NCBI GenBank assembly: GCA_050273025.1
Contig: CP158635.1
Span: 15,810,001-15,874,000 of the forward strand
From: Cenococcum geophilum
Lineage: Eukaryota
Length of the DNA stretch: 64,000 nt
Direction of reading: 5' to 3'
Of the stretch, positions 3,280 to 52,121 are shown one piece after another. Numbering within the stretch: the stretch's first letter is position 1; each line of letters starts with the position of its first letter. The notes under the pieces are model-generated. The model did not search any database, was not told the DNA's origin, and was given only the letters and a program-made list of their open reading frames with translations. Position numbers and translations under genes: made by a program.

Positions 3280-3631
3280 AGTCTATATAGAAATAAGACA
3301 ATAGGGAGGAATAGATTAACGGAAGTAGAGTTAGGGATAGTGCATGTGCTGTAGTAGAGTTTGAAAAAAAAAAAAAAGCCTTATAATAGATGATTGGGGC
3401 GTAATAGAGGGGGCGGCTGGGACGGACGGAAGAAGAGCGAGGGGGGAAGGGAGAGAGTAGAGAGAAAAAGTTAGGAAGGATGGAGGATAAAAGACGGCGA
3501 AGGGAGGGCCTTTTATGGTTGGTTGTTAAGGAAGATTGCTAGTTGGGGTGTAGCGCGAAAGTCGTAAGCGAGGCGCGGATTACCTAAACGGGGAGGCTCT
3601 ATTTCCTAATGCAGGCTTACCGTCTAATTGT

Positions 3632-6000
3632 TTACTAAAATTATATTTAATAATAATTTTTAATATATTTTAATTATATATAGCTAGAATAGGTTTATAA
3701 TTAATTATAAATATATTTTAAATATATTAGAAATATGTTTTAAATATATTAGAAAAAACTTATTATTTACCTTTATAGGATTTTTTAAATAGGCTTTATA
3801 AATAGCTTAAACTATTAAAATTACTATAAAATAGGCTATAAATAGCTTATATAGCTCTTTAAGGTAATAATTATTATATTAAAAAATATTTTATAATATT
3901 TTTAAGATATATATATAAGAAAAGATAAGGTAGAAGGTAAGGTTAAATTAAAAGAGGCAGGGTGGGGTGTGGTTATAAGTCGGCTAGACTATACTAAAAA
4001 GTCGGCCTACTATAAGCGCTAATGCATAATCCCTATATAGGGTAGCCCTAGCTTAAAATATAAAGTCGTATAGTTAACCAAGCCCAAATCGCTTATTCTA
4101 CCACACAACTTACCTCCTAATTAAATTTTATTATTATAAGTAACTAGTTATAATATATTTAGAACGTATTTAGAACGTATTTAGAATATATTTAAAATAT
4201 ATTTAGAACGTATTTAGAATGTATTTAGAATATATCTAGAACGTATTTAGAATATATTTAATATATATTCTAATTTAAATAATTTTTTTAGGCCTATAAA
4301 ATAGTATCTTAGAGATAAATATAGCTATAAAATTTAATTAAGTTTCTAATATATTTTAATCTAATTTTAGGTACTTTTTAATTTAGTTTTAAATATATAT
4401 AATCTAAAGTTCTTTTATTATATTTTTAACTAAGAATTATTTAAGCTCTTTAGGTACTAAATAAAAGTTATTATCTATATAAGTAGAGGTTGTAAATAAT
4501 GCTATACGCAGAGCGTATGCGGTAGGGGCTATATAGCGTAGCGTAGGTCACCTAACTACCTACGGCCCGATAGATAGCCCAACCTTTACTACCCCTTTCT
4601 TTCTCCTTTAGTAGACGAGATAAACACAAATAAATCAAGAACTAGTTACCTTATATTGCAATTACAGTACCCCCCTAGGTAATACTAACAGTTATATTTA
4701 TTATATTTATTTAAAAAGTATATATAAATAAGTTTATAATATTTAAATATAATATAAACTAGCTAAATATATATTCCTAAGCTAATAATATTAGTTCTTT
4801 AAATATAAAGGGTAAAAAATAAAAATTTATAAATACCTTTAAATTTTTTTTTATTTTTTTAAAAGATATAAGGTCTAATATAAAGTAAGTAAATAGTATA
4901 GTTATAAGTCGGCTAGACTACGTTAAAAGGTTAGCCTACTATAAGCGCTAATATATAATCCCTATATAGGGTAGCCTTAACTTAAAATATAAAATTATAT
5001 AGTTAACTAAGCCTAAATCGCTTATCCTACTATATAACTTACCTCTTAATTAAAATTAATTATTATAAATAACTAGCTAGAATATGTTTAGAATATGTTT
5101 AGAATATATTTAGAACATATTTAGAACATATTTAGAATATATTTAGAATATATTTAGAATATATTTACTATATATTCTAATTTAAAATACTTCCTTTTAG
5201 TAATAAATAAAATAAAAAAAATTTAAGCTATAAAATAGTATATTAGAGTTAAATATAGCTATAAAAGTAAATTAAGTTCCTAATATATTTTAATCTAATT
5301 CTAATCTAGTTCTAATCTAGTTCTAATTTAGTTTTAAATATATTCTAATCTATTTTTAAATATATATAATTTAAAGTTCCTTTTGTTATATTTATTATAT
5401 TAATTTAATAAGTATAAATATATATATTTAAGCTAATAATATTAGTTCTTTTAAATATAAAGGGTAAAAAATATTATAAATACCCTTAGAATTTATAATA
5501 GTTTTTATAAAATATAAGATCTAATATAAAGAGAGTAAATAGTTTTAATATATATAATTATTATTATTAAAAGTAATAAAAGCTAGTATATAATAATAAA
5601 TATATTTATATTTATATTTATATTTAAGCCTTATTTATATATATAAAGTAGCTTAAACTACTAAAATTATATTTAATAATAATTCTTAATATATTTTAAT
5701 TATATATAGCTAGAATAGGTTTATAACTAGTTATAAATATATTCTAAACGTATTAGAAACATGTTTTAAATATATTAGAAAAAACTTATTATTTACCTTT
5801 ATAGGATTTTATTTTAGTTTAAATAGGCTTTATAAATAGCTTAAACTATTAAAATTACTATAAAATAAGCTATAAATAGCTTATATAGCTCTTTAAGGTA
5901 ATAATTATTATATAAATTTTTTTTATAATAGATTTAAGATAGATATATAAGAAAAGATAGGGTGGATGGTAGGGTCAGGTTGGGAGGGGAAGGGTGGGGT
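3632..6000. repeat. AT-rich mosaic of direct duplications with a 12-bp tandem array
   Basis: 3632-3968 matches 5660-6000; about 3965-4420 matches about 4895-5390; about 4770-4895 matches about 5420-5545. A tatttagaa(c/t)(g/a)-type 12-mer is tandem at about 4155-4260 and 5078-5165. Confidence 0.85.
4472..4690 (+). mobile_element. Solo LTR related to the Copia-like LTRs at 40937 and 43536, in the opposite orientation
   Basis: Starts tatctatataagtagaggtt and ends ccttatattgcaattacagtacccccctaggtaatactaaca, the reverse complements of the two ends of the 43536-44139 LTR. 5-bp TSD gttat at 4467-4471 and 4691-4695. The middle is diverged. Confidence 0.85.
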
Positions 6001-6875
6001 TTGGTGTGGCGGGCGGAGGTTTCGCCTATCGGGCCGACCTTTTAGCGTGGTCTGGCCGACCTGTACGCACGCGTAGACCGTGCACGAGTTACGTGCACGG
6101 GGCACCTGCATTGTAAATCTCTTCATCGTAGCTCAAGGGCCCTAGATCACAAAATAAACCTCAAGTCAAGATTATCAATCAATTAACCCATTTCATCAAT
6201 GAATAGCTCTATATGAGTTATCTGACAAGAGGAGGAGGCGCAGCGTTAGGAGAAAGGAAAGATGGAAGATAAGAGGAAAAGCAGTAAGAGAAATGGCCTT
6301 TTATAGTTAAGGTCGAGGGGCAGTCTTGGCTTAGCCGGGGTTAATAAGCGAGGGCGCCTTACTTATAAAGGAAGCCTCCATTTCCTAATGCGTAGTCTCC
6401 ATCTTATTTTTTACTAAATAAAAAGTGTTTAATAAATTTTATATAAATTAGACAATAGGATAATAGGATAATAGAATAATAGGATAATAAGACGCTAGGA
6501 CCCTATAGAGATCTATAAAGGTAGAAGTTCCTACCTAGGTAGGATATTAGATTTCCCTTCTAATTTTAATTTAATTTATTTAGCCTATAACTCGCCTTCT
6601 TTATAATTTCTAATTAATTATAAATTGCAAGCGCTAAGCCGCTAGTTCGCCTACTTGTAAGCCTTCTATAAGTATTCTTTATACTAGCTTATAGCTGTCG
6701 CTAACCCTACTAGGCGCCGTTAAAGCTCCTACGCCGCTTATAAGCCGCTTCCCTAGCCCTACTAGAACTAATTTACCTCTACTACACTAAGTGTATAGCT
6801 ACCGCTAGGCGGGCTATCTATAGTAAGTAGGCTAACCGTAATTATAGGTACTGCTAACGACTAAATAAGTTATAC

Positions 6876-7058
6876 TGTTATAGTGCTATAATAAAGTAAA
6901 CTAAATAACTACGTTATAGTATAAGGAAAGAAGGTAGAAAGGGGGTATTGTATATAAATAGTAGGGCCAGCCGCTAAGTCACTAGTAGTGGGCTAGCTAA
7001 TAGTAGGAAATAGTATAAGACAGTATAAAATAGTATATATTAGGTTAGTGCCGTAACA
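6876..7058 (-). repeat. 3' LTR of D
   Basis: tgttatagtgc...gccgtaaca; direct repeat of 13753-13939; abuts the polypurine tract. Confidence 0.93.
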
Positions 7059-7330
7059 GTACTCCTTTCCCCTAAATAGTATAAGCTTTATAGTGTGGGA
7101 ATTAAATAAGCAACTTAATTGTAAATTTATGGAAATCAAGAGGTATATATATATAAAATGGTAGCTAAAATAGGAACAGTAATCTGCAAGCAATATTGAT
7201 CTGCGATCAATATATAGGGTGGTGTTAAGGCTGTCTCGGCAGCACCCGTAGTCGGTTACAAATAGTTTAGTCCCTAAACTAAATAAATAACTTAAAAATA
7301 GGCAGTATACGGGGTTGCCTATTTCTTACC

Positions 7331-7535
7331 GTAAAGATATTAGCTTTACTTACCGCCCTTAACTAAGCTAATAGCGATTTTCTATACTGGGCATAGAAAA
7401 TCCTAATTAGTTAGTTTAGTAAGTAAGGTCGGCAGAACTTTATACCGCTACCTAAATCGGTCCGCGTGGCGTTTCTTAGTAAGAATTTAGCCAATTAGAT
7501 AACTTTAACTGCTAGTTAAAGTTCTATAACATCTT
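7331..7535. promoter_or_regulatory. Conserved 3'-UTR palindrome module in D (also in F and G)
   Basis: Palindromes gattttctat...atagaaaatc (7376-7402) and aactttaac...gttaaagtt (7501-7523); CCAAT at 7491-7495. Function is inferred only. Confidence 0.5.
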
Positions 7536-10500
7536 AACTACTACAAATTTTAATACGGTAATCGGCCGCAACCTTAGCGTAACTTTTCCTTATCTTATAC
7601 CTAGTTTAGGGGTTTTAGCTTTTTAGGGTGTTGCTTATAAAAGCGCTATATAGCTTATTTATAACCCTTTAGGTCTTCCTCTAGCTGCTAGGTTATATCT
7701 TTATAATATTTCTATTTAATCTTATAAGTTAGGCCGTAGGGGTCTTCGTTATATATATTAAGGATTTTCTTAAACTTCTATTTATCTTCTATATTACCGT
7801 TATTATCTCTCTCTACTACTCGTCCTTATATATTACGGCGCTTTATAGTATTAATATTTGCTTAGCTAAGGATCTCTTTAACAGCCTAAAGGCGGACCTT
7901 AGATATATAAAAGGATTTATTTACTTAAATATAGTCTAGGAGGTCTACTATAACTACCCCTTAGTATACTGCGAGTACGGGGTACAGGCCGTCCTATTTA
8001 TTATCCTATTTTTTTTTAGGTTTATTTATCTTTATATTTTCTAAGCTAACTATAACTATATCGCCTTCGTAAAATAACACGCTCTTATCCCTATAGGTAT
8101 TAGTATTATCTTTATAGCGTTACTATAAAATCTAGGCTAGGACTTTAAGCTATATTAATATCCGCTTAAAGCGGTTAGCTATAGAGTATACGCAGAGGAA
8201 CTCCTTCTTTACTTATGCTAATAGTATTAGTAGGTAGGAGCCAGCTAGCTTAATTCTAAGGTAAGGATTAAAGCTATAGTTTATAAAAAACAGGGAGATA
8301 CCTATACTCTTATTAACTTAGTTATTTATAGCAAACTTAATAAGTGGCAGGTAGTTAACCTAGTTGTTTTATATAAAGCTAACAAAAGTATAAAGGTATT
8401 TATTTACGGCAGCGTTAATAATTTTAGTTTAGCCGTCTATTTTTAGGTGTTAGGCTAAGCTTAATTATAAGATTATCTTAAGGCGTTTACTTAGTTATTG
8501 CTAGAAGTCGCTAATAAATTATATACCGTAATTAGAGATAATCGTGCTTAGTATACTGTAAAGCTTATATACGTTATTAACAAAGCTATTAACTAGCTCC
8601 TTTATTAAGAGTCCTATTACTAAAATAAGGTATTATATTTTAGTTAGGCAGTCTATAATAATAAGGATATATTTATATACCTTACTATAGCGTTAGTATA
8701 CCAGCAGCGTTATAATATAGTTAATTAAGATATTAGTCTATAGGTGGATAGGTAATTTTAGTATCTTTAAAAAAACTAGGTGGGATAGAACAGGGGGTCT
8801 TAGTATAAAAGTATAGGGCATAGTTTTTAACAAAGGTAGCTATAAACTAGGAGATTTCTAGCTACCAGTATATTTAGTTTAAAAGGTTAAAAGTCTTAAC
8901 CTAGCTAGGGTAACTAGCGAGGCCGCTACTATAAAAGTAATAGGTAACTTTTAGGTAAAGGTTTAGGGCGTTAGGGATAAAGAGATATTAGTAAAAGTAG
9001 ATCTGTTTATTAACAATACTATATTCTAACTTATTATAATAGAGTAATTTCCTAATCTTCTTTAGCTAACAGCGAGCTTTCTAATTATATAGGGCCGCCA
9101 CTATATCTTTTACAAGTTCATTTTCCTAGTATCCTAGCTAAATTAACTTATTTAGTAACTTTTCGGCTATTTTAGGGTCTAGAGCGGCTATAAACTCCGC
9201 GTTATTAAAGTTGTGGGACTTATATAGTAATTCTTCTAAGATTATAGGGTTAACTTTTTAGGGTGGTATAATAACTTAGGCTTAGTAGCGGAGGCGTTTA
9301 TTATTAGCGTCCTTAGGCCTTATTCCTAGTAGCTAGCTTAGGGCATTAGGGAGCGTAGCTTTACTACTAAGTCTATATATAATTATAAAGTTAAACTATA
9401 AAAGAAACTCTGCCTACTAGACTTAGCGCTAATTTAGCTACTTAGTAATTATAAACGTCTATAGGTTCTTATGGTCGGTAATAATTTTAAACAGCTCCTT
9501 AGTCCCTTGCAGCTTAGGACGCTATTCCTCTAAAGCCTTAATAATAGCTAAGAGTTCTTTATTATAGATCTTATAGTTATACTCTAGCGTAAAGTACTTT
9601 ATAAAGAAGAATATAACCAGTCTTAATTTACCATTATTATTATATTAGGAAAGGACTTCACTAAAAGCCTAATTTAATATATCTATCTCTACCACTATTT
9701 TCTTTATATAGTTATAGTATGCTAGTACTAGTACTAAAGTAAAGGCTCCCTTAAGGGCCTTAAACGATTTAGCTTATTTTGGTCCCTATAGCTATCTAAT
9801 ATCCTTCTTTAGGAGTTTTATTATAGGTATAGTAACGGCAAAGTAGCCTTAGATAAATTATTAGTAGAACTTCGCGAAGCCGAGAAATTATTATAGTTCT
9901 TTAATTAATATTAGGTCCTTCTATTCCTATAAGGCCTATACTTTCTTAGGGTCTATAGTTATACTATTAGTTAAGATTATTAAGCTAAGGTATTTTGTTT
10001 TAGTAGGGTAGAACTTAAACTTATTAATATTAATCTAAAGTCTAGCATTACCAAGTCTTTAGATAACTTTATTTATATACTTAGTATACTTAGCGCGTAT
10101 TTTAAAAAAGACAAGGACGTTATTAAGGTAGGCAGTATAGTAGTTATTAAGGGCGTTATATAGAATATAGTTAATATAGTTTTAAAATATAGCGAGTGTA
10201 TTATAGAGGCCAAATAATATAACTAGTATCTTATAGAGTCTAAACTGGGTAATAAATGCTATAAGCTACTTATAGTCCTTTATAATCCAGATCTAGTTAA
10301 ACGTAGCAATTATATTAAGTTTAGTAAAGTACTTAGCACTATAAAGTGCATTAAGTGTCTTATAAATTAGTAGCAGTAGGTACCAATTTTTAATAGTAAC
10401 TATATTTAGGCCTTAGTAGTTATAGCAGATTTATATACTACTGCTAGGCTTAGTAGTAAGGAGGAGTAGTATAGTAGCTAGTAAGGTTAATTCGCGGATA

Positions 10501-13500
10501 AAACCCTTATCTAGTATCTTATTAATCCACTTCTTTATATACTTAAGTTTAGTAGGTAAAAGTAGTTAATTTTTATAGTACGGGGCCTAGTTTCTAGGGA
10601 TAATCTTAATTTTATAGTCCTATAGTTAGTAAGGGGGCAGCTTATCTATATTTTTAGGGAAGAAGTGCTTAATATATTTATAATACTTCTTTAGTAGGCG
10701 TTATAGAATATCTTTACGGGTTAATCCTGGTTTGCCTTTTAGGAATTTTTTAATATTAGTATTAACTATCTTCTAATATAAAAGCTTAGGCTTAGTTTTT
10801 AAATTTATCTTAAGGAAGTTATAAAAATAGGGGGGGGGCACTTTACAGGCTTTCTTTATTATATAGTCGCCTTCTACTAGCTAGCGGAAAGACCTTTTTA
10901 ATAGGTTTAGTACTTCTATTAGGCCTATAGGCAGCTCTTTAAGTAGCTATTAGTGCTTATCTTATTTAACTAGTTCTATTAGCTCCGCTATATAAATCCT
11001 TATTACCTTTACGTCTTTTTATTTATAGAACCGGGTAAAATTAATAGCATAAGTATATTTAATATTGTCTAAGTTAGGGCGTATCTAGTTCTCTAGTACT
11101 ACGGCTAGGCTAGTATAGCTTAGTTAGCCTAGGGGGGCGGAAGCAAGGCGGTGGCCCTATATAGTATACGCGGGAGATAGGTATAAGGTTAGGTATTATA
11201 GTGGCGCGGTTTCTATTATCCGGGTTTTAATAGTTCTATAACCAGTCCTTACTATAACGCGAGCTATAGTGTACGTATATAGCATATAGCTTAGTTTTAG
11301 GTATTAGGCTAGGCGACTAGGGTTTAAATAGTGCCTAGGTTAGGGTTAGATTTTTAATAATAGCGGCGTAAAGCGGACCTTCTTCCTTAGTCTTAGCAGG
11401 GCTAGCTAGCCTATTATTTTAATCTAAAGTGCTAGGGTAGTCCAGTCTTCTACTATTTTATTACTTTATAGCTATATAGGCTTTATATATAGTCCTAGGC
11501 ACTAGGCTTAGTAGTACTAAGTATCTATATAGGGCGTCCCTACTACTGTTGGTTATCCCCCACAGGAGGTAGTACCTAGAGTAATAGTCTAAGTTAAAGC
11601 GGATTTTAAGTTTCCTAAAGCTAGGACAGGGCTTATACTTCTAAAGCTAAGGTATACCTAGGATAATTAGGGTAGTAGGTAAGAGTTTAGTAATAAAAAA
11701 GAGTATAGCTTTAGTATAGAGGCCAATTAATATTTAGGTGGTAAAGTAGTCTATAATAAGCGAAGTTAGGATACTATTTATAAGGCGTAGTAGCCTAGGT
11801 GCTAATAGCTTCTTAATTATAACGTTATACTTTCTTATAATAGACTCTATATTAATAAATGCTATTATAGTACTACCGGAGTCTACTAGGCTTACTATAT
11901 TAATATAAACTTAGGGGTATAGATTATATAATAAGGAGAGTTAGGTTTAAATAAGGATTAATTTCTTATTACTATTTACTAATCTAAGATTAAGTAGCAG
12001 CTTACTAATAAAAAGGACTAATTAATCTAGTAATAGGGACCTAATCTTCTTATCTTCCTCCTTATATAGTTTAAACACTTAAACGCAACTTAGTTTAAGG
12101 GTTTACCTTTTAACAACTAGGGTATAGAGCTGTTTTAGTAAAGCGGTCTAGTATCTATCTAGCTAGCGGTATCGGTCTTAGTTTTAGTTGGGGTATAGAA
12201 AAATAATACCTTACTAATAACGTGGCCGTATTTGTATTCGCTAGCGCGGAGTTACTAATACTGGGCGTTATTAATAGGTTAGGCTCCTATATAGGGTATA
12301 GTTTAAAGTAACTAAGCCATAGGGTTAAAGGGGGGGGGGTTGTCCGCTATAGCTATAATAGGCTCCGCGGTTACCGCGTTTATAATAAACTTTATAATTA
12401 CCGCATCCGCGGTTATTAGTTCGCGTCGTTTAATAGGGTAGTATTAGGACTAGGTTTACTATTTTAGCGGGGTTATAGGCGTTCTTTTAGTAGCTAGGCA
12501 GGCCACGGATAAAGTATAATCTATTATTAACGCGGCGCTTACGCTCCATATCTAAAATTCTATTAAGGTTTATAGGTTCTCTAGTTACTACTAGGGTTAG
12601 GGTTAATATAGGGGCAGAGGCTTAGATAGGTAGGCGGTAGTTAGCGTTCTTCTTAAGGTTGGCTTAGTATATATAGTTTGCAAGGTTTTTAGCAAATATA
12701 TTTATCTACTTACTCTAACTTATATAATTACTATTATTAATTTTATAGGTAAGTTTAAGTACTAGCTCTTCTATTTTTAGAGAGATAAACTTTTAAAGTA
12801 GGTCCACCTTCTATTTATTTATTTTCTTAACGCGGACTATTAGCTTATTAAGCTCTCCCTTTTAGGACTAGTAATTACGCTCGCCCTAAGGGAAATGGTT
12901 AAGCTTATTCTTTATAACCTAGGTTATATTAAGGACCTTATAGTAGGCAGTAAGGTTTTTAAGTATATCTTCCTTAGTGGGCCATTTCTATATAGATATA
13001 TTGTTTAGGTTCTCGTATATAAGCTCTAGGCCCTACTTAATAAACTTATAGGCCTTATTCTCTAGTATATCTAAGATATAAAAGATCTAGGACTAAACTA
13101 TATTAAAGTAATCCCGGTCCTGGTTAAAGACTCCTTTAATCTTAATATACCAGGTCTTAAAATTAGCTTATTATTTTAGCGGGGTACCTTTTCCGCTAAA
13201 TATTAGTGGGTCTTTAAATCTCCGTTTTTTCTACTAGGTTACTACCGTTGTTATAGGGGTTAATTGTTTTAGAACGGCAATAGTCTCTATCTAGGAGTTA
13301 ATAGTTCCTATCTAAAAAGTAATAAGGGCACTAAGGTTTTCGTTAGCTTTTTTATTAGCGGTGTTTATATTATATATACACTGTAGTCCTACTTTAATAT
13401 TGTTAAGGAACTCGTTGGTATAGTTAATAAGGGTAAGGTAAGCTTTACTAAGCTTAAAGGTCTTAAGGTATAATAAGGAGCGGCGGATTATCTATATAAT

Positions 13501-13752
13501 ATTAGGGTATATCTCTATAAAGAGGTCTGCAAAAACATTACAGGGGTTTTAGGTTTTAGCCATTTTAGTATTATTAGTATTACCTATTTAGGCGCTAGGT
13601 AAAAACTAAGGATTATTCTAAAATTATACTAAAGATATATTAGTTTTAGTAGAGGCGCGCGTAGGTCGCGATTACTTTAGGGTAAAGGTTAATTGGCTAG
13701 GGTATAGGGAATTAGTGATTGTAATAAGGCGTAAATTAGAGATACTATAAAC

Positions 13753-13939
13753 TGTTATAGTGCTATAATAAAGTAGACTAAATAACTACATTATAATATA
13801 AAGAGGGGAAGAAGGTAGAAAGGGGGTATTATATATAAATAGTAGGGCCGGCCGCTAAGTCACTAGTAGTGGGCTAGCTAATAGTAGAAAATAGTACGAG
13901 ATAGTATAAAACAGTATGCGTTAGGTCAGTGCCGTAATA
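13753..13939 (-). repeat. 5' LTR of D
   Basis: tgttatagtgc...gccgtaata; direct repeat of 6876-7058. Confidence 0.93.
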
Positions 13940-16317
13940 TATACTAAGTAGTAAGTTTAAGTGCGTTAGTTTAGGTTCTAATAGCTAATAGACTAGGTTC
14001 CTAAGGCCTTTTATAGCTGCCTAAATAAGCTACTTACCCTTATTAATAGGGCTAAACGCCGGTGGGTTATTAGTGGGGACACGGCTAACCTTAATTCTTA
14101 CGTCGCTACCGCCTAGGAGTCCTTTATAAAGGATATTAAGGCCTTAGTACGCACTGGCGCTAAGTATTATTTCCACTAGCGCCTAAAGGGCGAAGACTTT
14201 CCCCTACTCTAAGTGCAGGAATTATAGGCCATCTATTATACTTTTAAAGGAATTCTTAACGTAATACACGCTTTAGTATATATTATAGCGTAAGTATTTC
14301 GCCGTTATAGCGTATACTAATAGTACCTATAGCCTAATATGCCTCCTATTATAAGGGATAAGGAGGAGAATAAGGGTAAGGAGGATAAGGAGGAGAGAGA
14401 GGAGGATAAGGAGGAAGAGGAAGATAAGGAGGAGGAAGGAGGGGAAGAAAAAAAGGATTTAGTAGAGCTATAGAGTATCTATATTTTTATTAGCGTACTA
14501 CTATTACTCTACCATCGTTCCGTCGTCGCCCTACTAGTAGGGTATAATCCTAGTTATAATTAAAAGTTTTTTATTCTCCTACTTACTTTCTTTTCTATTT
14601 ACCCTTTAGGATAAAGTAACTATTATATATCTCCTTTGCGTCCTTATTAATATCCTCTACTAGGACCTATTTATTATACTTTTCTAGCTAGTCTTTTTAC
14701 TTAACTAGGTACTATAGGGTTTGGTTACGTCCCTTTCTTCTATATACTTCTTCTACCTTATATTAGTCCTTTTAGTCCTTTTAATTATTTAGCTTAATAG
14801 GCCCTAGTAAAGGGTCTCTAATAGTACCTTTATATTATTTATATAGCTTTAGTAAGCTAATATAGAATACTAAGTAGATATAGTAAGACATAGGTAGATA
14901 TAGCTAGTATGCTTACTTTCTAACTAGTTTGGCTATACTAAAAGGTCTAATAAAGCGTGCTGTAAGTTTCTTACTTAGCCTTTTTAGTTTAAGGTTCTTA
15001 GTTAATAGTAAGACTAGATCCCCTACTTTATATACCTATAGTTAGTAATAATAATTATAGTATTTCGCCTATACCTTAGTAGTACTTTTCTAGCGTTTTG
15101 CTAGCGCTTTGTATTTAAGAGATATTTTTTTAATTCTCTTAAAGGCGGCTAGAATAGAACTACTATTATCTACCTAGACCTTATATTCTAAACGCGGGTA
15201 AAACCTATAGTAGGTATAGAACGGGCTTATACCTATTATGCTATATTTAGTATTATTATAAGCGAATTCGGCTAGTAATAAAAGGCCTACCTAGTTGCTT
15301 TACTTTTTATTACAGAATATACAGAGGTAATACTCTAGGGTTTAGTTCTGGCGTTCTATTTACCTATCCATTTATAGGTAAAAGGCCGTACTTAGCCTAT
15401 ATTTTATCTTTATAGTAAAGTATAGCTCTAACTAGAACTTACTAGTAAAGATACTACCGTAATTAAATATAATCCCCCTAGGGGCTCTAAAACGGCGTAC
15501 TACTTTATTAAAAAAGAAATCCGCGAGTTCGGTTATAGTAATAGTTTTTACTATAGGTAGATATAAGGCTATCTTAGTATAGCGGTCGACTATTATATAT
15601 ATTACGTTATATACCTTCTTGCCTTATTTACTAGGTAATAGGCCTATAATAAAGTCTATTATAATTTCCTACTACGGCTAGTCTAGGTAAGATAGCGCTT
15701 AAAGCTTACTATAAGGGCGATATTAAGGTATATATATATATATATTGGTATATATTATAGGTAGAGATATAGTTTATAGCGTCCGTATTTATATTAGGCT
15801 AGTAGTATTTACATAAAAGGAGATCTAGAGTCTTTTTCTTACTAAAGTGGCTAGCTAGGGTATTATTGTGGTAGATCTATAGGATCTTTATATAAACTGC
15901 TGGGTCTAGGGGTATATATAACCTCCTATAGTAATAAAGTAGTTTAGCGGAATTAAACTACTATACTAGCTTTAAGTAGGCGCGTTAACAGCGTCTTGTA
16001 GTATCTACGCTGTTGCTGCGCTTTTATAGTATAAAGTTATCTTTAGTTTAAAGTCCTTTAATAAGCTTAATAACTGTTTCCATATTAGACTTATAAGCAC
16101 TCTCTTAAGTACTGGCTTCTTTAACTTAGGTCCTTATTACACGCTACTTAATAGTATATATATAAGTTGCCTAATTAAACTGTAATACTATATAGCCTAG
16201 GCGTACCGCTATTAGGTTGCTAGCTTATAGCTATAAAAATAATACCTTTATAGAAGGCTCGCTTTCTTATATATCTAATAGGACTTTTATCTTAGGTTAG
16301 TGGCCCTATATTCCTAA

Positions 16318-16733
16318 TATAACGGAACCTTATAGCAAGAACTACGGTGGGCTCGTTATTGGGCTAGGTGTGTAAGTAAAGCAAGTTAAAGTTAATAATC
16401 GTAATAATAACTAGTAAAGTGGTTGCCTAATAGATTAACTCTAATTATATTCTAAGAATTACTATAAAGAAGGAGCTATATAGGTAGAGACTATGGTCCT
16501 TTAAATATACAACCGTACTCCTAAGAAATCCTTTTTATATATAATATACGTGTGCTCTATTTACTTTGTTACGGATTATATAGATTATATAGATTACCCC
16601 ACGTGACCTTAGTTACTATTTCTCGTTATATAGTTCTACTAGCTCTATCCTAGACCGTGCCTAAATTAACCAACTAGCTTCTTCTAACTCTTCTTTAAAT
16701 AGTTATAATATTGTACTTAAAGCGTCTATAATA
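16318..16733 (-). repeat. 3' LTR of A
   Basis: Direct repeat of 28470-28894; inverted relative to the B LTRs. Confidence 0.93.
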
Positions 16734-16841
16734 CTATCTCCCTCCTCTCTATTTTTGTCCTTAAAGATTCTAAATATCTTTAGGTTGTTTACTAGAGGTA
16801 TAATATCTATCTAATTAATTTGGTTAATATTATTGCTTATT

Positions 16842-17500
16842 ATACCTAAAGCAATTTCTTCTTCCTTAACTGCTCGTCGTGCTCGCACTATTACTGCGAT
16901 ATTATCTCTTAGTGAGATTATACCGTCTCTGTGTTTCTATTGTTTAAAAAGAGGTTAGTTTATATTACATTAGCGAACCTATTTTTATAATAATTATCCT
17001 CTTATTTAGAGTGCACTAAAGCAAATATTTATTTATTTTGTAATATTCGCTCTATCTCTAATACTAAATATATATAACCTATTACTCTTATTAGTTGTCT
17101 AGTTCCTTAATTAATTTATCTTAGGGTTTTATATTTAATCTGCTGCTATACGGCTAGATAATAAACTGTTTATTACTTTAGCGGAACTATGCCGTTTTTA
17201 GGACGCTAAACGGGAGGCTACTAATGCTTAATAACCGGCCCTTAAGTCTCGTCTGGCGGCGTTTGCTTAGTTAATCCGTCTTAAGAAGGTTTATAAGAAG
17301 GTGCGTTCTAAAGAGTAGAAATTTATAGAATAGGGTCTATAGGAACTTAGTAATAAAAAAATGGATTCTCTTTTAATAGAGAAGAAAATAGATCTAAGTA
17401 GTTCGGTAACTACTCTTTTTAGATCCCCCTTAGGTGACTTATTCTTTAGCGATCCTTTTTTATTAATACTACCTAACCTAATCTCTTCCGATACTTCTAT
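16842..17500 (+). pseudogene. Antisense spliced Zn2Cys6-like / coiled-coil gene in the 3' region of A
   Basis: Exon 1 16842-17069 (IPKAISSSLTARRART...EIIPSLCFYC...ECTKAN...CNIRSISNTK, with a 1-bp deletion relative to B). A 55-bp intron at 17070-17124 ends ttag. Exon 2 is coiled-coil-like; its end is approximate. Confidence 0.7.
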
Positions 17501-19271
17501 ACCTTTCCTATAATGTTCTTTAAATTCTCTAGTAGCTCCTAGGTAGTCTTAGTATAGCCTATTTACTTAACCTTATACTATATTTTATTATTAACGCTCT
17601 TATAACTAATAATCTTTAAAACTTACTATTTATCTTCTTTCTATCCTCTATACGTGTCTGCTTTATAAACTAGTGGCTTAATATTCCTATATACTAGCTC
17701 TAGTATCGCAATATGCTATATAAGGTAGATTTTTATTTTAGCTAGTAGGTCTAATTTAAATGTAACTAGTGAAATCTCCTATATAATTTTAAAAGGTCCT
17801 AGTCTAATATAGTTTAATTTTTTACTTAATTATCAACTCTTAAAATTTTTATATAGTAGCTATACTTTATCTCCCTCCTTAAGATCTAGTCCCTTAGATC
17901 TCTTAGTATTATAGTACTTTTTTATTCTTTTTTATACTTTCTTTACTAATTCTATAAGGTCTATATAAAGATTTATTAATATCTTTATTCTTTCTTTAGC
18001 TATGCTACTCGTTTTCTTTGCTTACTATAGTAATAATAATATTCTTAGCTTATATCCGTAATTTGCCTTAAATAGTAATATACCTATTCCTTCTTAAGGT
18101 GTTATATTATATGTAAACTATATAACTGGTAATAGTAATACCCAATTATTCTATATATAATTAATATAATGCCTTAGATACTGCTCTAGTATCTAGTTTA
18201 ATCTTTCCGTTTAACTATCTATCTACGGATAATATATAGTAGAAGTTACTACTCTAACTCCTTATTCCGCTAAGAATACCTCTTAGAATACTACTATAAA
18301 TCTTAAATCTCTGTCTAATATAATTTTACTTAGTACTCTATGCCTCGTAAATACTTCTTTAATATAGATTCTAGCGATATCTTCTACTAATATCTCTTCT
18401 ATGCATGCTATAAAGTATCCCCACTTTATAAGCTTATTTACTATTACTAAGATCGCGTTATAATCTTGTCCGGTAATAGGGTCTCTTAACTTTAATAACT
18501 TAATAATAAAGTCCTATAATATAACCTCCTATGGTTTCTCTAATATCTTAATAGGTTATAGCCCTCTATATAGCTTATACCTTATTAGTTTATTCCTTTA
18601 GTAATTTAGATATTCCTTTATAACTTTTTATGCTAAGCCCTAAATTCCATTAATAATATACTCCTCTTAGGGTCTTAACACTAAGCCCGTGGCTCTATTA
18701 TGTCCCTAAGTTATTCCCCTATAGAAATCCTCTATAAAATACTCTATTATACTTTTTAGGATATACTTTACTTCTCAATTCTCGTATATATCCGTTTATA
18801 AATCTTTTAGCTATACTTCTAGAATCTTTTATACCTAAAAGCTCTTTAGTGTCTTATAGACTCTTTCTAGTTCCTTAATTTCCTAAGTTACTGTAATCTT
18901 TAGATAATTATACTTAATTAATCTATCTATGTCTTTTCGCAGTAAAGCCCTTAATGGCTTCTTATCGTTTTATAGTTCAGCCTTATAACTTAAAGTATCT
19001 ACCTTTATGTTATTTATACCCTTAGTATACTAAATCTTAAAATAGTATTTTATAAGCATTTCTACCCATCTAATTTATCTTTAGTTAAGTTCCTTTATTA
19101 TTAGAAATCCCATTAGGTTTTTATAATCTATTTTAACTATAAATAGTTTCTTTATACCTTATAAGAATGCTCTCTATTTCTTTAGTACTATAACTATACT
19201 TAATAACTTCTTATTATAAATGTTATAGTTTAACTTTGGTAGTATTATCTTCTAACTATAATATGCTACTA

Positions 19272-26800: not shown

Positions 26801-28469
26801 TCTATTGGTTTCTATCTATTATGGGTCCTTAAGTATACCTTATCTTGCCTTAAAAATCTTAGTTATCTCTTATCTCGCTATAAGAATCTTAAGCCTTTAG
26901 CCTCTTACCTTTATTAAATATTAAAGTAGTTTGCTGCCCTACTTCTCTTATATCTTATAAAGCGATAAACATCGTGTCTAGCGGGGTTTTAATCCCTACT
27001 AATATTCCCTACTCTATAGTGGAATTATCCTCTACCTCTATTATAATATCTTTAAGGTCTATATACTTCTAGTAAGCCGCCTTTATTACCTTATTATTAT
27101 GGAATATTTCGCCTATATTAAATTTATTGTCCTTAATGTCTAATCTATAAACTAGTTTATTAGTTCCTCTATATACTATAGATTTCGGCTCCTATAGCTA
27201 ATAGCTTACGCCATACTTAGCATCTTTATAAATTTAGTATACGTTATTATAATAAAACGCAAAACTTCTAATTAAATATTCTTTTGTTCCTCGTAGTATA
27301 CTATTATCCCTCTATATATATATATCTTTTACTACTAGTCTTATTCCCTTTATTATATGGTAACTCTAACTATCTTTATAATCCCTTATAAAATAACCTT
27401 ATTTCCTATAATTTATATAAGCTCCATCTTTAAACTATTAACTTTACTATAAAGTCCGCCTAAATATCTTTTACTACTAAGATCTCTAGTTTAACCTTTA
27501 CTCCTTAGTCCTATAATTACTAGATCCTTAACCTCTAGGTTTTTATAGTTTTTTACTTTATCTCTTATAGGCTTTTTTAGTACTACTTAGGTCTATTAGC
27601 TTTACGCTATACTATAGTTTCTAACTTAACTTTAGTTAATGCGTACCCTACGCCTTATATAACTGTAAAACTCTATCCTAACCTCTCTTAGCCTATTTCC
27701 TTTAGTAGATCCAATTATTAATCTTAATCGCTTAATTTATTAAATCCCTTAGGGTATCTATATCTTCTATTAAAATAATTACGTCCTAGACTTTAGCCTT
27801 AAGTCCCTATTTATACTATACTATAAGCGCCTTATTATTCTACTTAACTTACGTTACTAACGTCTGGAACTATATTATATATTTAATTGCTAAAGTTTAT
27901 TATGTAATATCTTAGAGTTTTCTTTCCGCTATAGTTACTGCCTCTAAGTCTCTAAATATTTATATAAGTCGCTCCATAAACCCTTTCTAGCTTAAAAATA
28001 TAAATCGCACCTCTTAATTAGTGGTTGTTATTCTATTTACCTATATCTCCGTAAGGTAAAGCTTAAACTACTTAAGTGCTCTTCCTAATAGGAATAGTCC
28101 TACGTAGGCTATTTAATCTATAAGTATAGGTAGCTTTACCCCTTCTTATATAACTTTAAAGTATATTTATATAAGGAATCCTTTAAGCTTTAATCTCTCT
28201 CCTAAGAATCTCTTAATTAATAGTAGCTTAACCCTCGCTGCTTTTATCCCATTAACCCTTTCTTCTAGCGCCGCATTATTTATTATTAACTGGTTAATTA
28301 CCTCTTATAATTATCTAACTATTATAGGTTGTTATAAATTAGTGTCTACTATACTGGTATTACCTAACCTTAAAGTAGTTGCTGCCGTTAATGGCGTTGT
28401 AGTAGTAGCTGCTTTTAGTAGCATATTGTTTAACTTTCTACACTTATAACCGTAACTAGGTAGTAATTA

Positions 28470-29922: not shown

Positions 29923-29969
29923 CAATTACTACCTAGTTATGGTATTAAATATAGAAAGTTAAATAATAT

Positions 29970-48041: not shown

Positions 48042-50725
48042 ATAGATAAACTAGTAATAAAAGTTAGTAAAACCTAAAAAGACCTAGACATCCCTATAGA
48101 ATTAAGGGCTCTCCTACTTAGCAATAGCTTCTACCCAGCTAGGATCTATTATTACGCCTTTAGGACTAATAATATATCCTAGGAACTTAACCTCTTATAC
48201 GCCAAACCTATACTTCTTAAGGTTTGTATATAGTTAATATTACTATAACCTACGTAGCACTTCTAGTACGTAGCGCTAGTGTTCCTCTAGATTTTCCAAG
48301 AAAATTAGAATATTATTAAGGTAGACTATATAGAAGACATCTATTAGTCCTAATAAGGCTTAATTAATATAGCCCTAAAAGGTCGCTAGTCTGTTAGTTA
48401 ACCTAAAAGGCAAAACTAAATACTTAAAGTGGCTGTAACGCGTATAGAATGTTATCTTTTACTTATCGCCCTAACGGATACAAAGGCAGTAGTACACATT
48501 TATTAGGTCTAATTTAGTAAAGATTTTAAAACCTGCTAAGCGGTCCAAGGTCTTACTAATTAATAGTAGTGTAAGACAATTCTTAATTGTCACCTTATTA
48601 AGGCCTTTATAGTTTATATAGGGCCGCAGCTTTCTATTTTTTTTTATATAAATAGGATAGGTGCCCCTACGGGGCTAGTACTTAGTTAGATTTAGCCTTT
48701 CGCTAAGGCGTTATTTAAGTATTCCCTTAGTACCTTTAGCTCCTTAACTAAGAGGTTATAGAGTAGTCTATATAGGACCTCCTGTCCCTTTTTTAGGTTA
48801 ATAGTATAGTCGCCCTAGTAGTGTCGGGGTAGCTTTTTTGCTTCCTTATATAAGAAGACATTACTAGCTTTTTTTAACTATAGGGGAAGAACTAGTAAGC
48901 TGCCGTTGTTTTATTTACTAAGTATTAATCCAGTAATTACTAAGGCAAAGACCCTAGATTCCCTCTAGAGAGACTTTATAAAACCCTTAGGGGTTTATAG
49001 CAATAGGGATAAGCCGTTTAGCTTCTATTACTACGCCTTTACCTTACAGTTAATAAGAAGTTAGGCCTTTTTTAACCCTAGTATACCTAGGGTAATAGTA
49101 GGGGATATATTAGCTATTCTATAGCAAATAAGGGTTACTTTCCTTATCCTACCCTAGCTATTCTTTATTTCTAATAGTACCTTATAGGCTTTATAGCAAT
49201 ATACCTAAGTTTTATTTAACTAGGAGTAGGTAGATAATTCTGCATCTAGTGTTTTAAAGTTATACTCTATTATAAATCGCTAATTAATTATATTTACTTT
49301 AGCGCCAAAATTAAGTATTACTAAGGTTTCCTTCTAAGTCTGCTTAAATAGGACTTCTTCTAAGATAGTAATAGCTTCCTTATAATCTAGTAGTAGCTTA
49401 TACCCTATAGGTATAAGGGGCTCTAAAGGCGCCTACCTTTTCCTAGCGTAGAGATAGCGTTTATGCTACTTAGCGGCGGCTAGTACTATTATAGCTCTAG
49501 GCACTATCGCCACTAATATCCTAGCTTACTACAATTTTTATAGTTCCCCTTAGGTTGGGTTAAACCCCTAGCAGTACTACTTTGCCCCGCCATTATATTA
49601 CTAGCGGTGGTTTTAGAGTCCGCTTTCCCTAAGTTACCTAATAGGGTGGTCTTTATATTTAAGTTTACGGCACGCCTATTACCTCTAGCTTATAGGGCGC
49701 TTACGCTCTTCTAGTTTTTCTTTAATAGGGCAGCTAGGGAAATAAGCTAATTTTAAGTTTATGGAAATTCCTAATAGTTAGTAACTATAAGCCGTAGCTC
49801 TAGCTATAGCTTTGCGAATAGGTGTATTATTAAATACTTTATATTATAGGGAGGATTAATTTGCGCTTCTAAGGAGGTTAGGTAAATAGTAAACTTATTT
49901 ATAGGTTAATTGGTTTGCTATATTGCCCTTATATAGGTTAGGGCTGTATATAGTTCTTAATTAATAGGACTTTTAATCTAATTAAGTAAGAATTCTATAA
50001 GCTTCCCCTAGGTAAACTACGTATCTAAATAGTTATCTTTATACTATAGCCAAAGGGTTTAGTTGGTCCCCTTTATATATTATATAATAAACACAACTTT
50101 AGTATCCTTATCCGCGAAAGCGTTAAGCTCTAGGCGGAATGCTAGCTTTAAGCTATTACGGAAGTCTTAGTGCTTTTATATACTCTTACCGTAATACGGA
50201 GTAATCTTCTTTATTTTAACGGCCCGTTTTAATAAAGCGCCTATTATATTAGTAGCCTTCCGCTTAAGGTTTAGATACTTTAAGCTACCCTTTAAGTACT
50301 CTAATAGGATGCTCTAAGGTAGTAGATTTAGGTTAGGAATAGGAGTTAATATTACCTTACCGCGTTAACGCCGTTTTAGCATTTCTACCTCTTCCCTAAG
50401 CAACTATAGTTTTCCTTACTTTAGGAGTTATAGCTTCTTATTCTCTAGCCGTTGTATTTCTTCCTATATAGTATTCTCGCCTGTAGCTTTTAGTTCTATT
50501 TAGGATATAGGTCTACCCATATCGTCCTAGGGCTAATCCCCAGACTCGGTACTACGCACTGCGCTAATATTACGCCCGCGTCTCGCTATTAGGTTAATAG
50601 ACTATAATATAATTAATAAATATAGGTCGTCTTTTTAATAGAGGGCTGTTGCTATATAGTCGTAGCTTTAGCAGACCACTGTATTGCCGGACCGCTACCC
50701 CTAAAAAGGGATAAGAATTTAGAAC

Positions 50726-50928
50726 TATTAGGACGCTAAGGCCCTAAGGGTATATAGTAATATAATAATAGTAGCGGAATGTAAGGAGTATCTGGTTCTT
50801 AATAAAGTAGAACTATAAAACTAAATTCTACTATTCTCTAATGCGGGGCGACTATGTTTTATAGGCGCCTTGCCTACACCTCGCCTGCGCTAAGCTAGTT
50901 ACGGTTAGTACGTCTCTATAGCCTAATA
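50726..50928 (-). repeat. Probable 5' LTR of element C (203 bp)
   Basis: Bounded by inverted ends tattagg...cctaata (RIP form of TG...CA termini), about 135 bp upstream of the gag start. No partner LTR is visible in the window. Confidence 0.6.
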
Positions 50929-52121
50929 ACGGAATACCCTAGCCTTATAGTTAAAGCGTAGGCGAAAAGTAAGCGCCGCTGCTAAGATATAATCTATACT
51001 AAAGCGGAGCAGAGGACGTCCTAAGGGATTAAAGAATAAGTAACGCTTATAGTAAGAACTGCGGCATACATATAGGGTAAAGTTTTAATTTATTAGTATT
51101 TTATGTAAGCCACACTTTAATGTAACCCGGCTATAGCGTACGCTAGTAATAAAGCTTAATTTAAAAAGCACCCTTCCTAGACCTAGTTTGTCACTCTATA
51201 CTAGCTTAGCAGATTATTTATATTAGAAAATAGGCCTATTTATAACTAGGGTCTATAACCTACTAGTAACCCGCTAGTAGTAACCTATACTAATAACTTA
51301 TATACTATTCTATATATAAGTAACCTATAACCTACCTATAAAGTATATACAGCGCTACGCCGGTATAGCGTAAAGTTAAAGTAGGGTTAGCGGTGGATTT
51401 AATAGGTATATAGCCTTACTATCTATAAATCTGGCTATATATAAATAACCTATAACCTATCTATAAGGTATTAGCGACCTACCTATATAAGTAAGCTTTA
51501 GAATACTTCTAATAGTTTATTAAATTTAGATAATAACGTTAAGCTATAGGCTCTAGGCGTTAAATAGACTAATTAGGATTTTCTATCCCGGGGATAAAAA
51601 ATTACTATTAGCTCGGTTAAATACGGGGGAGTCTTAATAAGGCAAATTTAACTAATTAAATAACTTTAACTGCCGGTTAAAGTTCTTTAATATCTTTATG
51701 CCGCGTATATGCACTACCTATCTCTCTATACGCAAAATTAAAATACTCTTTCCCCTCTAAATTTTTTCCTTACTAAGGGTTTTTGTGGGGTTTTATTAAG
51801 GTTTAAGTATATAAAGGATTGGGGATAACCCTTTTTAAAGGGGGGGGCATTATTAGGCAAAACCTAAGTAGATAGTTATATAGGCGTAAGGTATAGGTAA
51901 CCCTAGGGCAACCTAGAGGTAACTCACCTATAAGGCATGTACTCTATACATACCTAGGGAAAACCCTTCCTACCTCGTATATAGACTCCTTCTTTTCCCT
52001 TAAGGATTTGTCTCTGTCTATATAATATACCCTATTATTCTATTATTGGACTCCCTATTTATATCCTTACCTTATATATACCTACTTCTATAATATAGAT
52101 CTACCTTCTCTACTCTTAATA
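50929..52121 (+). mobile_element. 3' fragment of LTR retrotransposon F (AT-hook ORF end, 3' UTR, polypurine tract, LTR)
   Basis: KRSRGRPKGLKNK at 51002-51040; palindrome module 51568-51697; G-run polypurine tract 51837-51850; candidate LTR 51851-52121 (tattagg...cttaata), directly followed by Mutator coding sequence. Confidence 0.65.
51568..51697. promoter_or_regulatory. Conserved 3'-UTR palindrome module in F
   Basis: The same two palindromes at 51577-51603 and 51662-51684, each preceded by ctaatta. Confidence 0.5.

Follow-up and report, generated by a model that had tools for sequence, protein, structure and literature searches.

Evidence for a spliced antisense gene encoding a six-cysteine protein in a RIP-degraded probable chromovirus of Cenococcum geophilum

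To our knowledge, no function has been established for any antisense accessory gene of LTR retrotransposons, whether in plants or in fungi. One of them, brtn of the element Boty from the grey-mould fungus Botrytis cinerea, is attributed to Zhao et al. (2011, Virology 417:248). In the accounts given by the papers cited here, brtn is an antisense gene that Boty-like elements carry between pol and the 3′ LTR (PMC8365987, PMC7264820, PMC4227169, PMC5987419). The plant aORF-3R, as outlined in one of these papers, is likewise antisense between pol and the 3′ LTR, and occurs in maize Grande1, rice RIRE2, Silene Retand and Phaseolus PvRetro13 (PMC7264820).

A 64,000-nt stretch of C. geophilum DNA (hereafter the window) contains element C, a minus-strand Ty3/gypsy retrotransposon and probable chromovirus, which is RIP-degraded (C-to-T type) and fragmented by nested elements. 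It was compared with 11 other copies of C recovered from metagenome contigs; all counts out of 12 include the window copy. C very probably carries a spliced antisense gene for a protein with a six-cysteine (Cys6) module and a helical domain, which was under selection during the spread of the family and is dead in the window, where five of the six Cys codons read Tyr, eight RIP stops are present, a second element (D) has been inserted and the 3′ end of C has been lost.

As far as its published descriptions go, Boty resembles C in being a fungal Ty3/gypsy element and in bearing, between pol and the 3′ LTR, an additional oppositely oriented gene of unknown function; the gag-pol of Boty includes a CHROMO domain, and the pol of C has a chromodomain-like end. 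The two differ in host lineage, relatives of the C gene coming from Dothideomycetes, and brtn was compared by description alone. Seven of the ten matches to a profile of the helical domain were looked up; Zopfia was the sole species name among them, with no Botrytis or Sclerotinia, which argues weakly against close kinship with brtn. The plant aORF-3R shares with the C gene its position and strand, its occurrence in the majority of family copies, a conservation similar to that of the element's proteins and an unknown function (PMC7264820). Its hosts are plants, the C gene is split by short fungal-type introns, and the two can be likened by layout only. The C gene itself lies within its element, flanked by the pol stop and by the polypurine tract and 3′ LTR, runs opposite to gag-pol, is present in most C copies and is conserved like the element's own proteins. 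The notion of a recurrent third gene of fungal chromoviruses, proposed in an earlier note on this DNA, is not new as an idea, since brtn provides a precedent.

Position of the antisense gene in element C

The LTR, reverse transcriptase and integrase of C were all of Ty3/gypsy type (Table 1). In the window, pol matched Integrase_H2C2 (3.5e-7) and SH3_Tf2-1 (8e-12) in Pfam. A less mutated copy, L002, matched Chromo at E 7.5e-5 (23 bits, under the 25.1 cut-off; RIP stops were written as X), and in copy L009 the chromodomain search gave only an MSL3_chromo-like match (E 0.064). Two nested F2 elements separate the reverse transcriptase of C from its integrase. A homologue of the window LTR formed the outer end, adjoining the polypurine tract, in seven of the 11 other copies; the window copy is truncated at ~6403 and is without the last internal bases, polypurine tract and 3′ LTR that these seven display.

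Table 1. Features of element C, of the antisense gene and of neighbouring elements (window coordinates)
Feature	Position	Strand	Remarks
Probably non-coding internal C sequence, upstream of the antisense gene	6403..6619	+	alignment with 7 loci
Candidate first exon	6620..6667	+	16 codons; low confidence
Putative intron 1	6668..6713	+	46 nt; ATAAGT here from GTAAGT, GCTAAC branch motif, 3′ TAG
Exon 1, with Cys6 module	6714..6875	+	162 nt in 12/12 copies
Nested LTR retrotransposon D	6876..13939	-	LTR pair; pol-like matches on minus strand
Last two codons of exon 1	13945..13950	+	TAA GTA here; CAA in 4/12 copies
Intron 2	13951..13996	+	GTAAGT ... GCTAAT ... TAG; phase 0
Exon 2, helical domain	13997..14320	+	107 codons + stop TAA at 14318-14320
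GA-rich tract	14345..14470	.	plus strand E/D/K/G-rich, minus strand Pro-rich
3′ part of C pol	14595..16314	-	integrase zinc-binding domain, integrase, SH3-like domain, chromodomain-like end
Pol stop codon of C	14595-14597	-	
F2 antisense stretch	16735-17500	+	
F2 antisense stretch	46850-47613	-	
Reverse transcriptase of C	48167..48641	-	RVT_1 5.3e-13
5′ LTR of window copy of C	50725..50929	-	about 205 nt, TG...CA

The accessory gene, on the opposite strand, occupies the ~1.1-kb internal region that separates the pol stop of C from its polypurine tract. The earlier note had allowed that this segment might be flanking DNA, should other copies of C lack it. In all 11 other copies the antisense segment was unbroken and internal to the element, with the polypurine tract on one side and the pol stop on the other, so it is not flanking DNA and the accessory gene belongs to family C. 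Both domains of the encoded protein occupied an identical place and strand in every metagenome copy, and an HMM of the gene matched the plus strand in the window and at 11/11 loci, with the pol domains on the minus strand. Seven of the other copies displayed the full order of LTR (205 nt, TG..CA), polypurine tract, gene and pol end; the remaining four were cut or interrupted on the LTR side. The proposal that C bears an antisense, spliced Cys6 gene between pol and its 3′ LTR is supported by all 11 copies, and by intact relatives described below. The convergence of this gene on the end of pol, also claimed, agreed with the location of the minus-strand pol stop. Summed contig depth in public run X1 was ~18,000-22,000 over the gene interval and 38,000 over the pol end, with single listed contigs at ~100-130.

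A large insertion had been suspected of hiding the gene, and this was upheld. The LTRs of D (6871-7056 and 13748-13937) are 89% alike, and its 5-bp target-site duplication, tatac, is found at 6871-6875 and 13940-13944. Contigs from public runs join 6870 directly to 13940, omitting 7069 bases (four contigs in X1, two in X4 and none in X6), while D was absent from all 11 other C copies, each of which was continuous across the insertion site. The insertion point is three codons upstream of intron 2.

Elsewhere in the window no resemblance to the gene was detected at the DNA, protein or HMM level. Lenient blastn, repeated after CA/TG to TA conversion, returned no second or 5′ LTR copy of the interval in the window, and a custom transition-tolerant alignment was uninformative there (score 195 vs 182 on the wrong strand). 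The earlier note had likened the layout of the C gene to that of another antisense gene in this DNA, attributed to families A and B. The likeliest candidate for the latter, with some uncertainty in the identification, is the antisense stretch of F2, in which two Cys codons were proven by comparing copies. The deep homology or convergence proposed in that note gained no support from this candidate: the stretch gave no match to the C protein family in blastp (best E 0.06) or with two HMMs, and its two-copy reconstruction contained one C-x2-C, scattered Cys/Tyr and no clear gene.

Exons, introns and cysteine codons

Intron 2, recognised as canonical by the earlier note, was well preserved among copies: GTAAGT was present in 12/12, TAG in 11/11 copies having the site, together with a CTAAY branch motif. 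Its length was 46 nt in seven copies, 47 nt in four and 39 nt in one, and the 46 vs 47 nt difference was the only length change shared among copies. The predicted in-phase joining also held, as the end of exon 1 and the start of exon 2 both fall on codon boundaries. Exon 2 measured 324 nt in 8/12 copies and carries five RIP stops in the window. A family HMM that included the window copy matched the window at 13997-14344 (E 9e-50).

Upstream of exon 1, the stretch 6681-6713 had been read as coding. It is probably part of a second 46-nt intron at 6668-6713, which would explain the in-frame stops upstream of the Cys exon that are common to all copies. This putative intron 1 was 46 nt long in 12/12 copies, began with GTAAGT in three, ATAAGT in eight and ATAAGC in one, and retained GCTAAC in 7/12 and TAG in 10/12. 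No start codon for the Cys exon was found in any copy examined. The candidate first exon begins with ATA AAT in 11/11 copies and aligns with no gap columns; this ATA could be a RIP-destroyed ATG or part of a TATAAAT box. Its length fits P0064, a relative whose Met precedes the Cys domain by 37 residues. That a short first exon existed and lost its ATG to RIP is possible, though we consider it less likely than not.

The candidate frame had the fewest stops of the six frames in all five copies examined. Frames were read from a reconstruction in which C or G was preferred wherever at least one copy had it; open reading frame length there was rejected as evidence, because frames of at least 100 codons were open on both strands. 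Of eight transversions shared by at least two copies in exons 1 and 2, seven were at codon position 3 (binomial estimate p ~0.003). Shared transversions were densest in the spacer adjoining the gene (0.056); exon 1 had a density of 0.037, the pol end 0.023 and exon 2 0.006. Judged by substitution patterns, the reading frame was under purifying selection during the spread of family C. An RNA run (X21) yielded 43 reads, all under 95% alike and with no splice joint, and was uninformative on expression.

Comparison of the 12 copies also revised the Cys spacing, given in the earlier note as C-x2-C-x8-C-x7-C-x2-C-x6-C, to C-x2-C-x11-C-x7-C-x2-C-x6-C, with Cys codons at 6774, 6783, 6819, 6843, 6852 and 6873. 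Only the codon at 6852 is still TGC in the window, the other five being TAY. The first codon was TGC in 6/12 copies, the second (the C1 of the earlier note) in 3/12, the third and fourth in 1/12 each, the fifth in 9/12 and the sixth in 8/12. These counts, along with the relatives, indicate that the Tyr codons were ancestrally Cys, as had been supposed; one of the two Cys taken to be intact, at 6792, was not. This codon, TGT in the window, is CGY in 10/12 copies and was therefore Arg, the window TGT being a RIP product. TGY in RIP-affected DNA may thus itself be a mutation product of CGY, which calls for caution. RIP stops in the Cys exon of the window are located at 6741, 6828 and 6855. An HMM of the Cys module built without the window copy matched the window at 6744-6872 (E 6e-17).

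The earlier note had ended the protein in an E/D-rich tract. In-frame TAA at 14318 and TAG at 14330 were present in 10/10 copies covering them, and the intact ORFs of five close relatives (P0003, P0005, P0013, P0016 and P0017) stop at this point; P0014 also terminates there, with Tyr. On these alignments the acidic tail lies outside the conserved ORF of family C. The GA-rich tract behind the gene varied from 82 to 159 nt among copies and gave low-complexity matches only in a database search. That a third, in-frame mini-intron of 21 or 39 nt connects the ORF with the acidic tract was considered unlikely, given its short length and weak 5′ site.

Protein family and resemblance to known zinc modules

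The encoded protein would be ~160-175 residues long, comprising the six-cysteine module followed by a helical domain of ~100 residues. Searches with the window copy alone were negative: neither exon 1 nor exon 2 nor the F2 antisense frames had a Pfam match, and exon 2 retrieved just two low-complexity matches (7% coverage) in a word-indexed protein search. A profile of exon 2 from nine natural copies retrieved ten proteins at E <= 1e-3 among 1.84 billion. The Cys6 module was contiguous with the helical domain in P0007 (a hypothetical protein from a gene model of Zopfia rhizophila), P0064 (a gene model of Macroventuria anomochaeta), and P0009 and P0033 (predicted ORFs of metagenome contigs); the two gene models may be unverified. 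Six Cys columns are common to the C copies and to P0007, P0033 and P0009, and all are Cys in the intact relatives. The family-wide module reads C-x2-C-x(10-11)-C-x(7-8)-C-x2-C-x6-C. In spliced C the last Cys is followed by two residues and then V-P; this spacing equals that in P0007 and P0009 (Cys to V/F-P), which fits the splicing out of 13951-13996.

By homology, the protein belongs to an unnamed ascomycete protein family, whose intact members come from two named Dothideomycetes and many soil and root metagenome contigs. Conservation at the protein level reaches down to ~30% identity across genera. The 56 database relatives are mostly short metagenome ORF fragments, with many near-identical variants. 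Among viral contigs, 72 pattern matches were obtained, none of them confirmed.

Zn2Cys6 modules have the spacing C-x2-C-x6-C-x(5-12)-C-x2-C-x(6-8)-C. The C module resembles this Gal4-type domain (PF00172) in its six Cys and in a second half, C-x2-C-x6-C, with basic residues and followed by helices; the first loop, however, has 10-11 residues instead of 6 in P0007, P0033, P0009 and the C copies, while the rest fits. PF00172 was not matched by P0007 or P0009 at E <= 1, nor by P0033, P0064 or five Cys-domain sequences at E <= 10, and DUF3716 was not matched by these four proteins or the Cys-domain set, in Pfam scans whose filters drop most matches above E 0.1. The second half of the module gave a weak match to AlcR (E 2.4), and the nearest Atlas structures included Zn_clus clusters (TM 0.23-0.34), a result that we treat as a lead only. 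The first C-x2-C stretch resembled a C2H2 finger knuckle more (ZBTB17; three weak stretches together gave E 0.007).

AlphaFold2, run on an 11-sequence alignment, returned a mean pLDDT of 70 with helices at 60-79, 82-112 and 122-173, and the helical domain is predicted to fold as a helical hairpin with an additional, third helix. At E <= 1e-3 Foldseek found no match in PDB, a wide VIA-align search recovered generic helical hairpins only (best Z 7.8), and sequence-profile searches of PDB returned nothing significant. No Pfam family or solved-structure match supported zinc or nucleic-acid binding.

Readings of the gene and their consequences

For a spliced antisense gene that was selected while C spread, a tentative mechanism can be outlined. 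The Cys6 module would bind zinc and, with the helical domain, would constitute a small nuclear factor binding nucleic acid or protein; this factor, translated from an antisense Pol II transcript, would act on behalf of the element, perhaps by controlling its transcription or by dampening host silencing. We consider this scheme as a whole rather doubtful.

HBZ is an antisense bZIP gene of HTLV-1. Rather than a lone passenger, the C protein might represent a branch of an old and widespread accessory lineage of ascomycete chromoviruses that includes brtn, in which a putative zinc module and dimer-like helices would regulate element transcription or host silencing in an HBZ-like manner. We regard this broader reading as unlikely; if true, the gene would be a conserved "third gene" of ascomycete chromoviruses.

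An origin by capture, in which C fairly recently took up a host Cys6-helical gene or fragment that is now a passenger, the Zopfia and Macroventuria relatives being ordinary host genes, appears improbable. The only named relatives, on contigs of 272 kb and 803 kb, are indeed listed as ordinary hypothetical proteins, the introns are spliceosomal and host-gene-like, and the other element families of the window have no detectable homologue. However, the gene is present in 11/11 copies and was under selection during family spread, the fragments and near-identical variants that make up most of its 56 relatives are as expected of a multi-copy element, and Boty, as described, has an antisense gene in the same position.

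Still less probable is that the element uses the antisense RNA itself, for instance to regulate copy number or as a source of small RNA, the ORF being incidental or disused. Such transcripts are common among retrotransposons, and no start codon was found for the Cys exon, but conservation of the protein across genera, with its Cys columns kept, and the excess of third-position changes speak against it.

That the Cys/Tyr pattern, intron signals and open frame are accidents of RIP-mutated non-coding DNA is exceedingly improbable: RIP leaves TAY regardless of whether the codon began as TGY, CGY or CAY, GTAAGT-like strings abound in DNA of this sort, 28 instances of a loose [C/Y]6 pattern are found across the six window frames, one supposedly intact Cys proved to be an artefact and the window copy alone had no Pfam or database match, yet intact homologous proteins have all six Cys in the same domain order, variation is biased to third codon positions and exon lengths are conserved.

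As to method, a RIP-destroyed gene can be recovered through collection of copies with purine/pyrimidine-degenerate anchors and profiled translations. The antisense Cys6-helical gene of C adds to the fungi a well-supported antisense accessory gene and a protein family with non-canonical Cys6 spacing, and its intact relatives make the function of antisense genes testable.

Nested elements of the window

Self-comparison and domain scans resolve the window into a stack of mutated transposons; it is AT-rich (GC about 0.16–0.43), and none of its ORFs is longer than 290 codons. Element C, a RIP-degraded Ty3/gypsy element on the minus strand and probably a chromovirus, is interrupted by two copies of a second LTR family, F2, and by the nested LTR element D (see the table). 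In five metagenome loci with other copies of C (L001, L002, L004, L008 and L009), the integrase is continuous from the homologue of 16317 to that of 28895, which confirms the nesting of F2 in C. The two F2 copies (16317–28895 and 29494–48041) stand head to head in the pol of C with ~ 600 bp between them, and each carries its LINE-like element at a different place.

Positions in the window of the elements and codons discussed
Feature	Position	Strand	Details
D	6876–13939		nested in C; LTRs 89% alike; tatac at 6871–6875 and 13940–13944
RT of C	48167–48641	minus	RVT_1, 5.3e-13
Integrase zinc-binding and SH3-like domains of C	between about 14600 and 16314	minus	domain scans
pol stop of C	14595–14597	minus	
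F2 LTRs, 427 bp	16317–16734, 28469–28895, 29494–29922, 47614–48041		two F2 copies interrupting C
LINE-like elements	19272–23890; 34095–38705		one per F2 copy; RVT_1, 6.8e-11
F2 pol-to-LTR interval, two copies	16735–17500; 46850–47613	plus; minus	92% mean column identity
First Cys	6774	plus	TGC in 6/12; overlooked in the earlier note
Second Cys	6783	plus	TGC in 3/12; first Cys of the earlier note
Ancestral Arg, not Cys	6792	plus	CGY in 10/12, TGT in 2/12
Third Cys	6819	plus	TGC in 1/12
Fourth Cys	6843	plus	TGC in 1/12
Fifth Cys	6852	plus	TGC in 9/12
Sixth Cys	6873	plus	TGC in 8/12

Several other repeats were recorded. A very AT-rich block at 3400–6400 (GC 0.16 at 5001–6000), with imperfect direct and inverted repeats (3633–3973 like 5659–6005; 3972–4406 like 4901–5352), adjoins the point, at about 6403, where C is cut off, and 6255–6480 is 66% like 3473–3705. 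The block at 39000–44100 has fewer mutations (GC 0.38–0.43), an internal repeat (40932–41093 like 43531–43693) and the window's longest open frames (42076–42948, minus strand, 290 codons). At 62498–62740, a 20-nt unit is repeated eight times in tandem. Three related stretches of 140–200 nt (51560–51700, 63594–63757 and 7332–7536) are 70–86% alike after RIP-site collapsing; one, partly palindromic, falls in D's own pol-to-LTR interval. Another chromovirus-like element (54078–60186, minus strand, 250-bp LTRs) has only about 270 bp between chromodomain end and LTR, and hence no room for an extra gene.

The interval between pol and the 3′ LTR of C

The proposal that D, a 7-kb insertion, splits a segment of C was borne out by empty sites: contigs from public sequencing runs skip 7069 bases and join both sides of D with 5 ambiguous bases (four contigs in run X1, two in X4, none in X6), and the site was uninterrupted in 11/11 fetched metagenome copies.

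Within the window, 6000–6876 plus 13945–14650 has no second copy. Summed depth in X1 was about 17,700–22,300 over the interval, versus 38,400 at the pol end and about 100–130 for single contigs listed, indicating that the interval is repeated; differences among run contigs over it were nearly all transitions. Run X6 covers the whole 9-kb stretch, and runs X6 and X13–X20 (root and soil metagenomes) contain 17–38% of its sampled words.

Other copies were retrieved with a 48-nt purine/pyrimidine anchor from 6795–6842, yielding 11 metagenome contigs (4.5 to 80 kb). In all of them the homologue of 6410–6876 runs on into that of 13941 onward, and 7/11 end on the outside in a TG..CA repeat, about 205 nt long and matching 50725–50929 by homology; this repeat is the LTR of C, and the purine run next to it is the minus-strand polypurine tract. 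As LTR and polypurine tract lie outside, the 1.1 kb from pol stop to polypurine tract is internal to C. Other copies lacking the segment would have spoken against its belonging to C, as claimed in the earlier note; it was present and continuous in 11/11. In the window copy, which ends at about 6403, the polypurine tract and 3′ LTR are gone.

Exons, cysteines and boundaries of the antisense gene

Among 12 copies (the window copy and the 11 others), the plus-strand Cys6 exon (exon 1, 6714–6875) was invariably 162 nt long, and the helical-domain exon (exon 2, from 13997) 324 nt in 8/12, with private indels in three copies and one truncated. The sole length change common to copies (46 vs 47 nt) lies inside the intervening intron, 13951–13996. 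This had been called a canonical intron, and so it proved, with GTAAGT in 12/12 copies, the 3′ TAG in 11/11 and a spacing in relatives that fits its removal. In-frame stops were fewest in the candidate frame, of six frames, in 5/5 copies examined (in L002, 1 vs 4, 13, 4, 2 and 12). Across 11 copies (L007, mostly unrelated sequence, was omitted), 7/8 transversions common to at least two copies in the exons fell at codon position 3 (binomial estimate, p about 0.003), and shared-transversion density per column was 0.006 in exon 2 and 0.037 in exon 1 versus 0.056 in the adjacent spacer and 0.023 at the pol end. A C/G-preferring reconstruction left exon 2 open for 116 codons with codon periodicity (GC 0.72/0.46/0.67); as it opens long frames elsewhere too, ORF length was not counted as evidence.

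The window copy of the antisense gene alone had no Pfam or protein-database match. A profile of exon 2, built by aligning its translations from nine natural copies (stops written as X), gave 10 matches at E ≤ 1e-3 among 1.84 billion representative proteins, comprising close-relative fragments (E 1e-33 to 1e-16) and distant relatives (E 4e-8 to 2e-4). The match to P0011, a repetitive protein, spans only about 29 positions, and P0011 was not included in the family. In two distant relatives, P0007 (174 residues, annotated as hypothetical in Zopfia rhizophila) and P0009 (an ORF predicted from a metagenome contig), the exon-2-like domain is fused directly to a six-cysteine module. A further round of profile searching brought in another 56 proteins, mostly short metagenome ORFs, including a close relative's intact exon-2 ORF (P0013) and P0033, with both domains in one uninterrupted ORF. 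Since P0009 and P0033 are plain contiguous ORFs, the two exons make one protein. Without 13951–13996, C reads last Cys, two residues, V-P, with equal spacing in P0007 and P0009; P0033 has four more residues there.

Six cysteines are real and recur in all six columns of P0007, P0033 and P0009, as C-x2-C-x11-C-x7-C-x2-C-x6-C. The spacing first proposed, C-x2-C-x8-C-x7-C-x2-C-x6-C, was wrong: it overlooked 6774 and took 6792 for an intact Cys, where the ancestral codon is Arg and TGT is a C-to-T product at CpG. Differences between the F2 pol-to-LTR intervals, many of them CG vs TA, or C vs T before G and T, indicate that the C-to-T process of this genome is not limited to CpA and can turn CGY (Arg) into TGY (Cys). 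With CG vs TA differences frequent among copies, the original of a TAY codon may have been Cys, Arg or His, to be decided case by case on outside evidence. The stops at 6828 and 6855 derive from CAG and CGA (two copies each).

Upstream of 6714, in-frame stops common to all copies coincide with GTAAGT, GCTAAC and TAG, and these signals are spaced as in a candidate second 46-nt intron (6668–6713; 46 nt in 12/12 copies), with GTAAGT kept in three copies and ATAAGT in eight. No ATG precedes the Cys exon in copies of C. A candidate first exon of 16 codons (6620–6667) starts with ATA in 11/11 copies, which may be a lost ATG or else a piece of a TATAAAT box.

The gene had been thought to end in an E/D-rich tract, which falls outside the conserved ORF of C: TAA at 14318 and TAG at 14330 occur in 10/10 copies covering them, and codon 14321, between both, is TAG in nine and CAG in one. 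Five intact ORFs of relatives terminate exactly here (...SVC or ...NAC). Introns were not modelled in calling these ORFs, and one could begin at their end, but this is unlikely: the only in-frame GT..AG candidates span 21 and 39 nt. The GA-rich tract (14345–14470) and its equivalents in L001–L011 measure 82, 108, 108, 114, 126, 126, 126, 138, 138, 138, 143 and 159 nt, and most of these lengths differ by multiples of three. Translated from the minus strand, the tract would give a proline-rich run in the pol frame, one stop codon past the pol stop. Searching longer proteins as well yielded P0064, a Macroventuria anomochaeta gene model of 586 residues, whose helical domain is followed by an acidic Gly/Ser-rich stretch; an acidic tail may thus be ancestral.

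Other antisense genes and the protein family

Two family HMMs match C alone in the window, and C copies alone in the 11 loci. On the strand opposite pol, the pol-to-LTR interval of F2 has a C-x2-C proven at two codons (TGT in one copy vs TAT in the other), with further Cys/Tyr codons beside it; protein comparison and the two HMMs detected no similarity to the C protein. This stretch may be the "A/B" gene of the earlier note. An antisense gene in the pol-3′ LTR interval is an already described layout: passages of PMC8365987, PMC7264820 and PMC4227169 place brtn there, in the Boty-like elements of Botrytis and Sclerotinia, and likewise an antisense gene of plant elements, the position and orientation seen in C. 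In PMC2864245, Gypsy elements of fungi are drawn with an "additional ORF with unknown function", according to a figure legend.

The protein family has no Pfam match, neither Zn_clus nor DUF3716, and no solved-structure match by sequence or by fold. An AlphaFold2 model (mean pLDDT 70) has three helices and a small Cys-rich part. In the ESM Atlas, P0007 adjoins clusters of ascomycete hypothetical proteins (157, 77 and 63 members), and Zn_clus factors are listed only at TM 0.23–0.34 from it. We infer that the protein would be a zinc-binding accessory factor, probably nucleic-acid-binding or protein-binding. The antisense gene of C is real and element-borne, though dead by now, and its protein belongs to an unnamed family.
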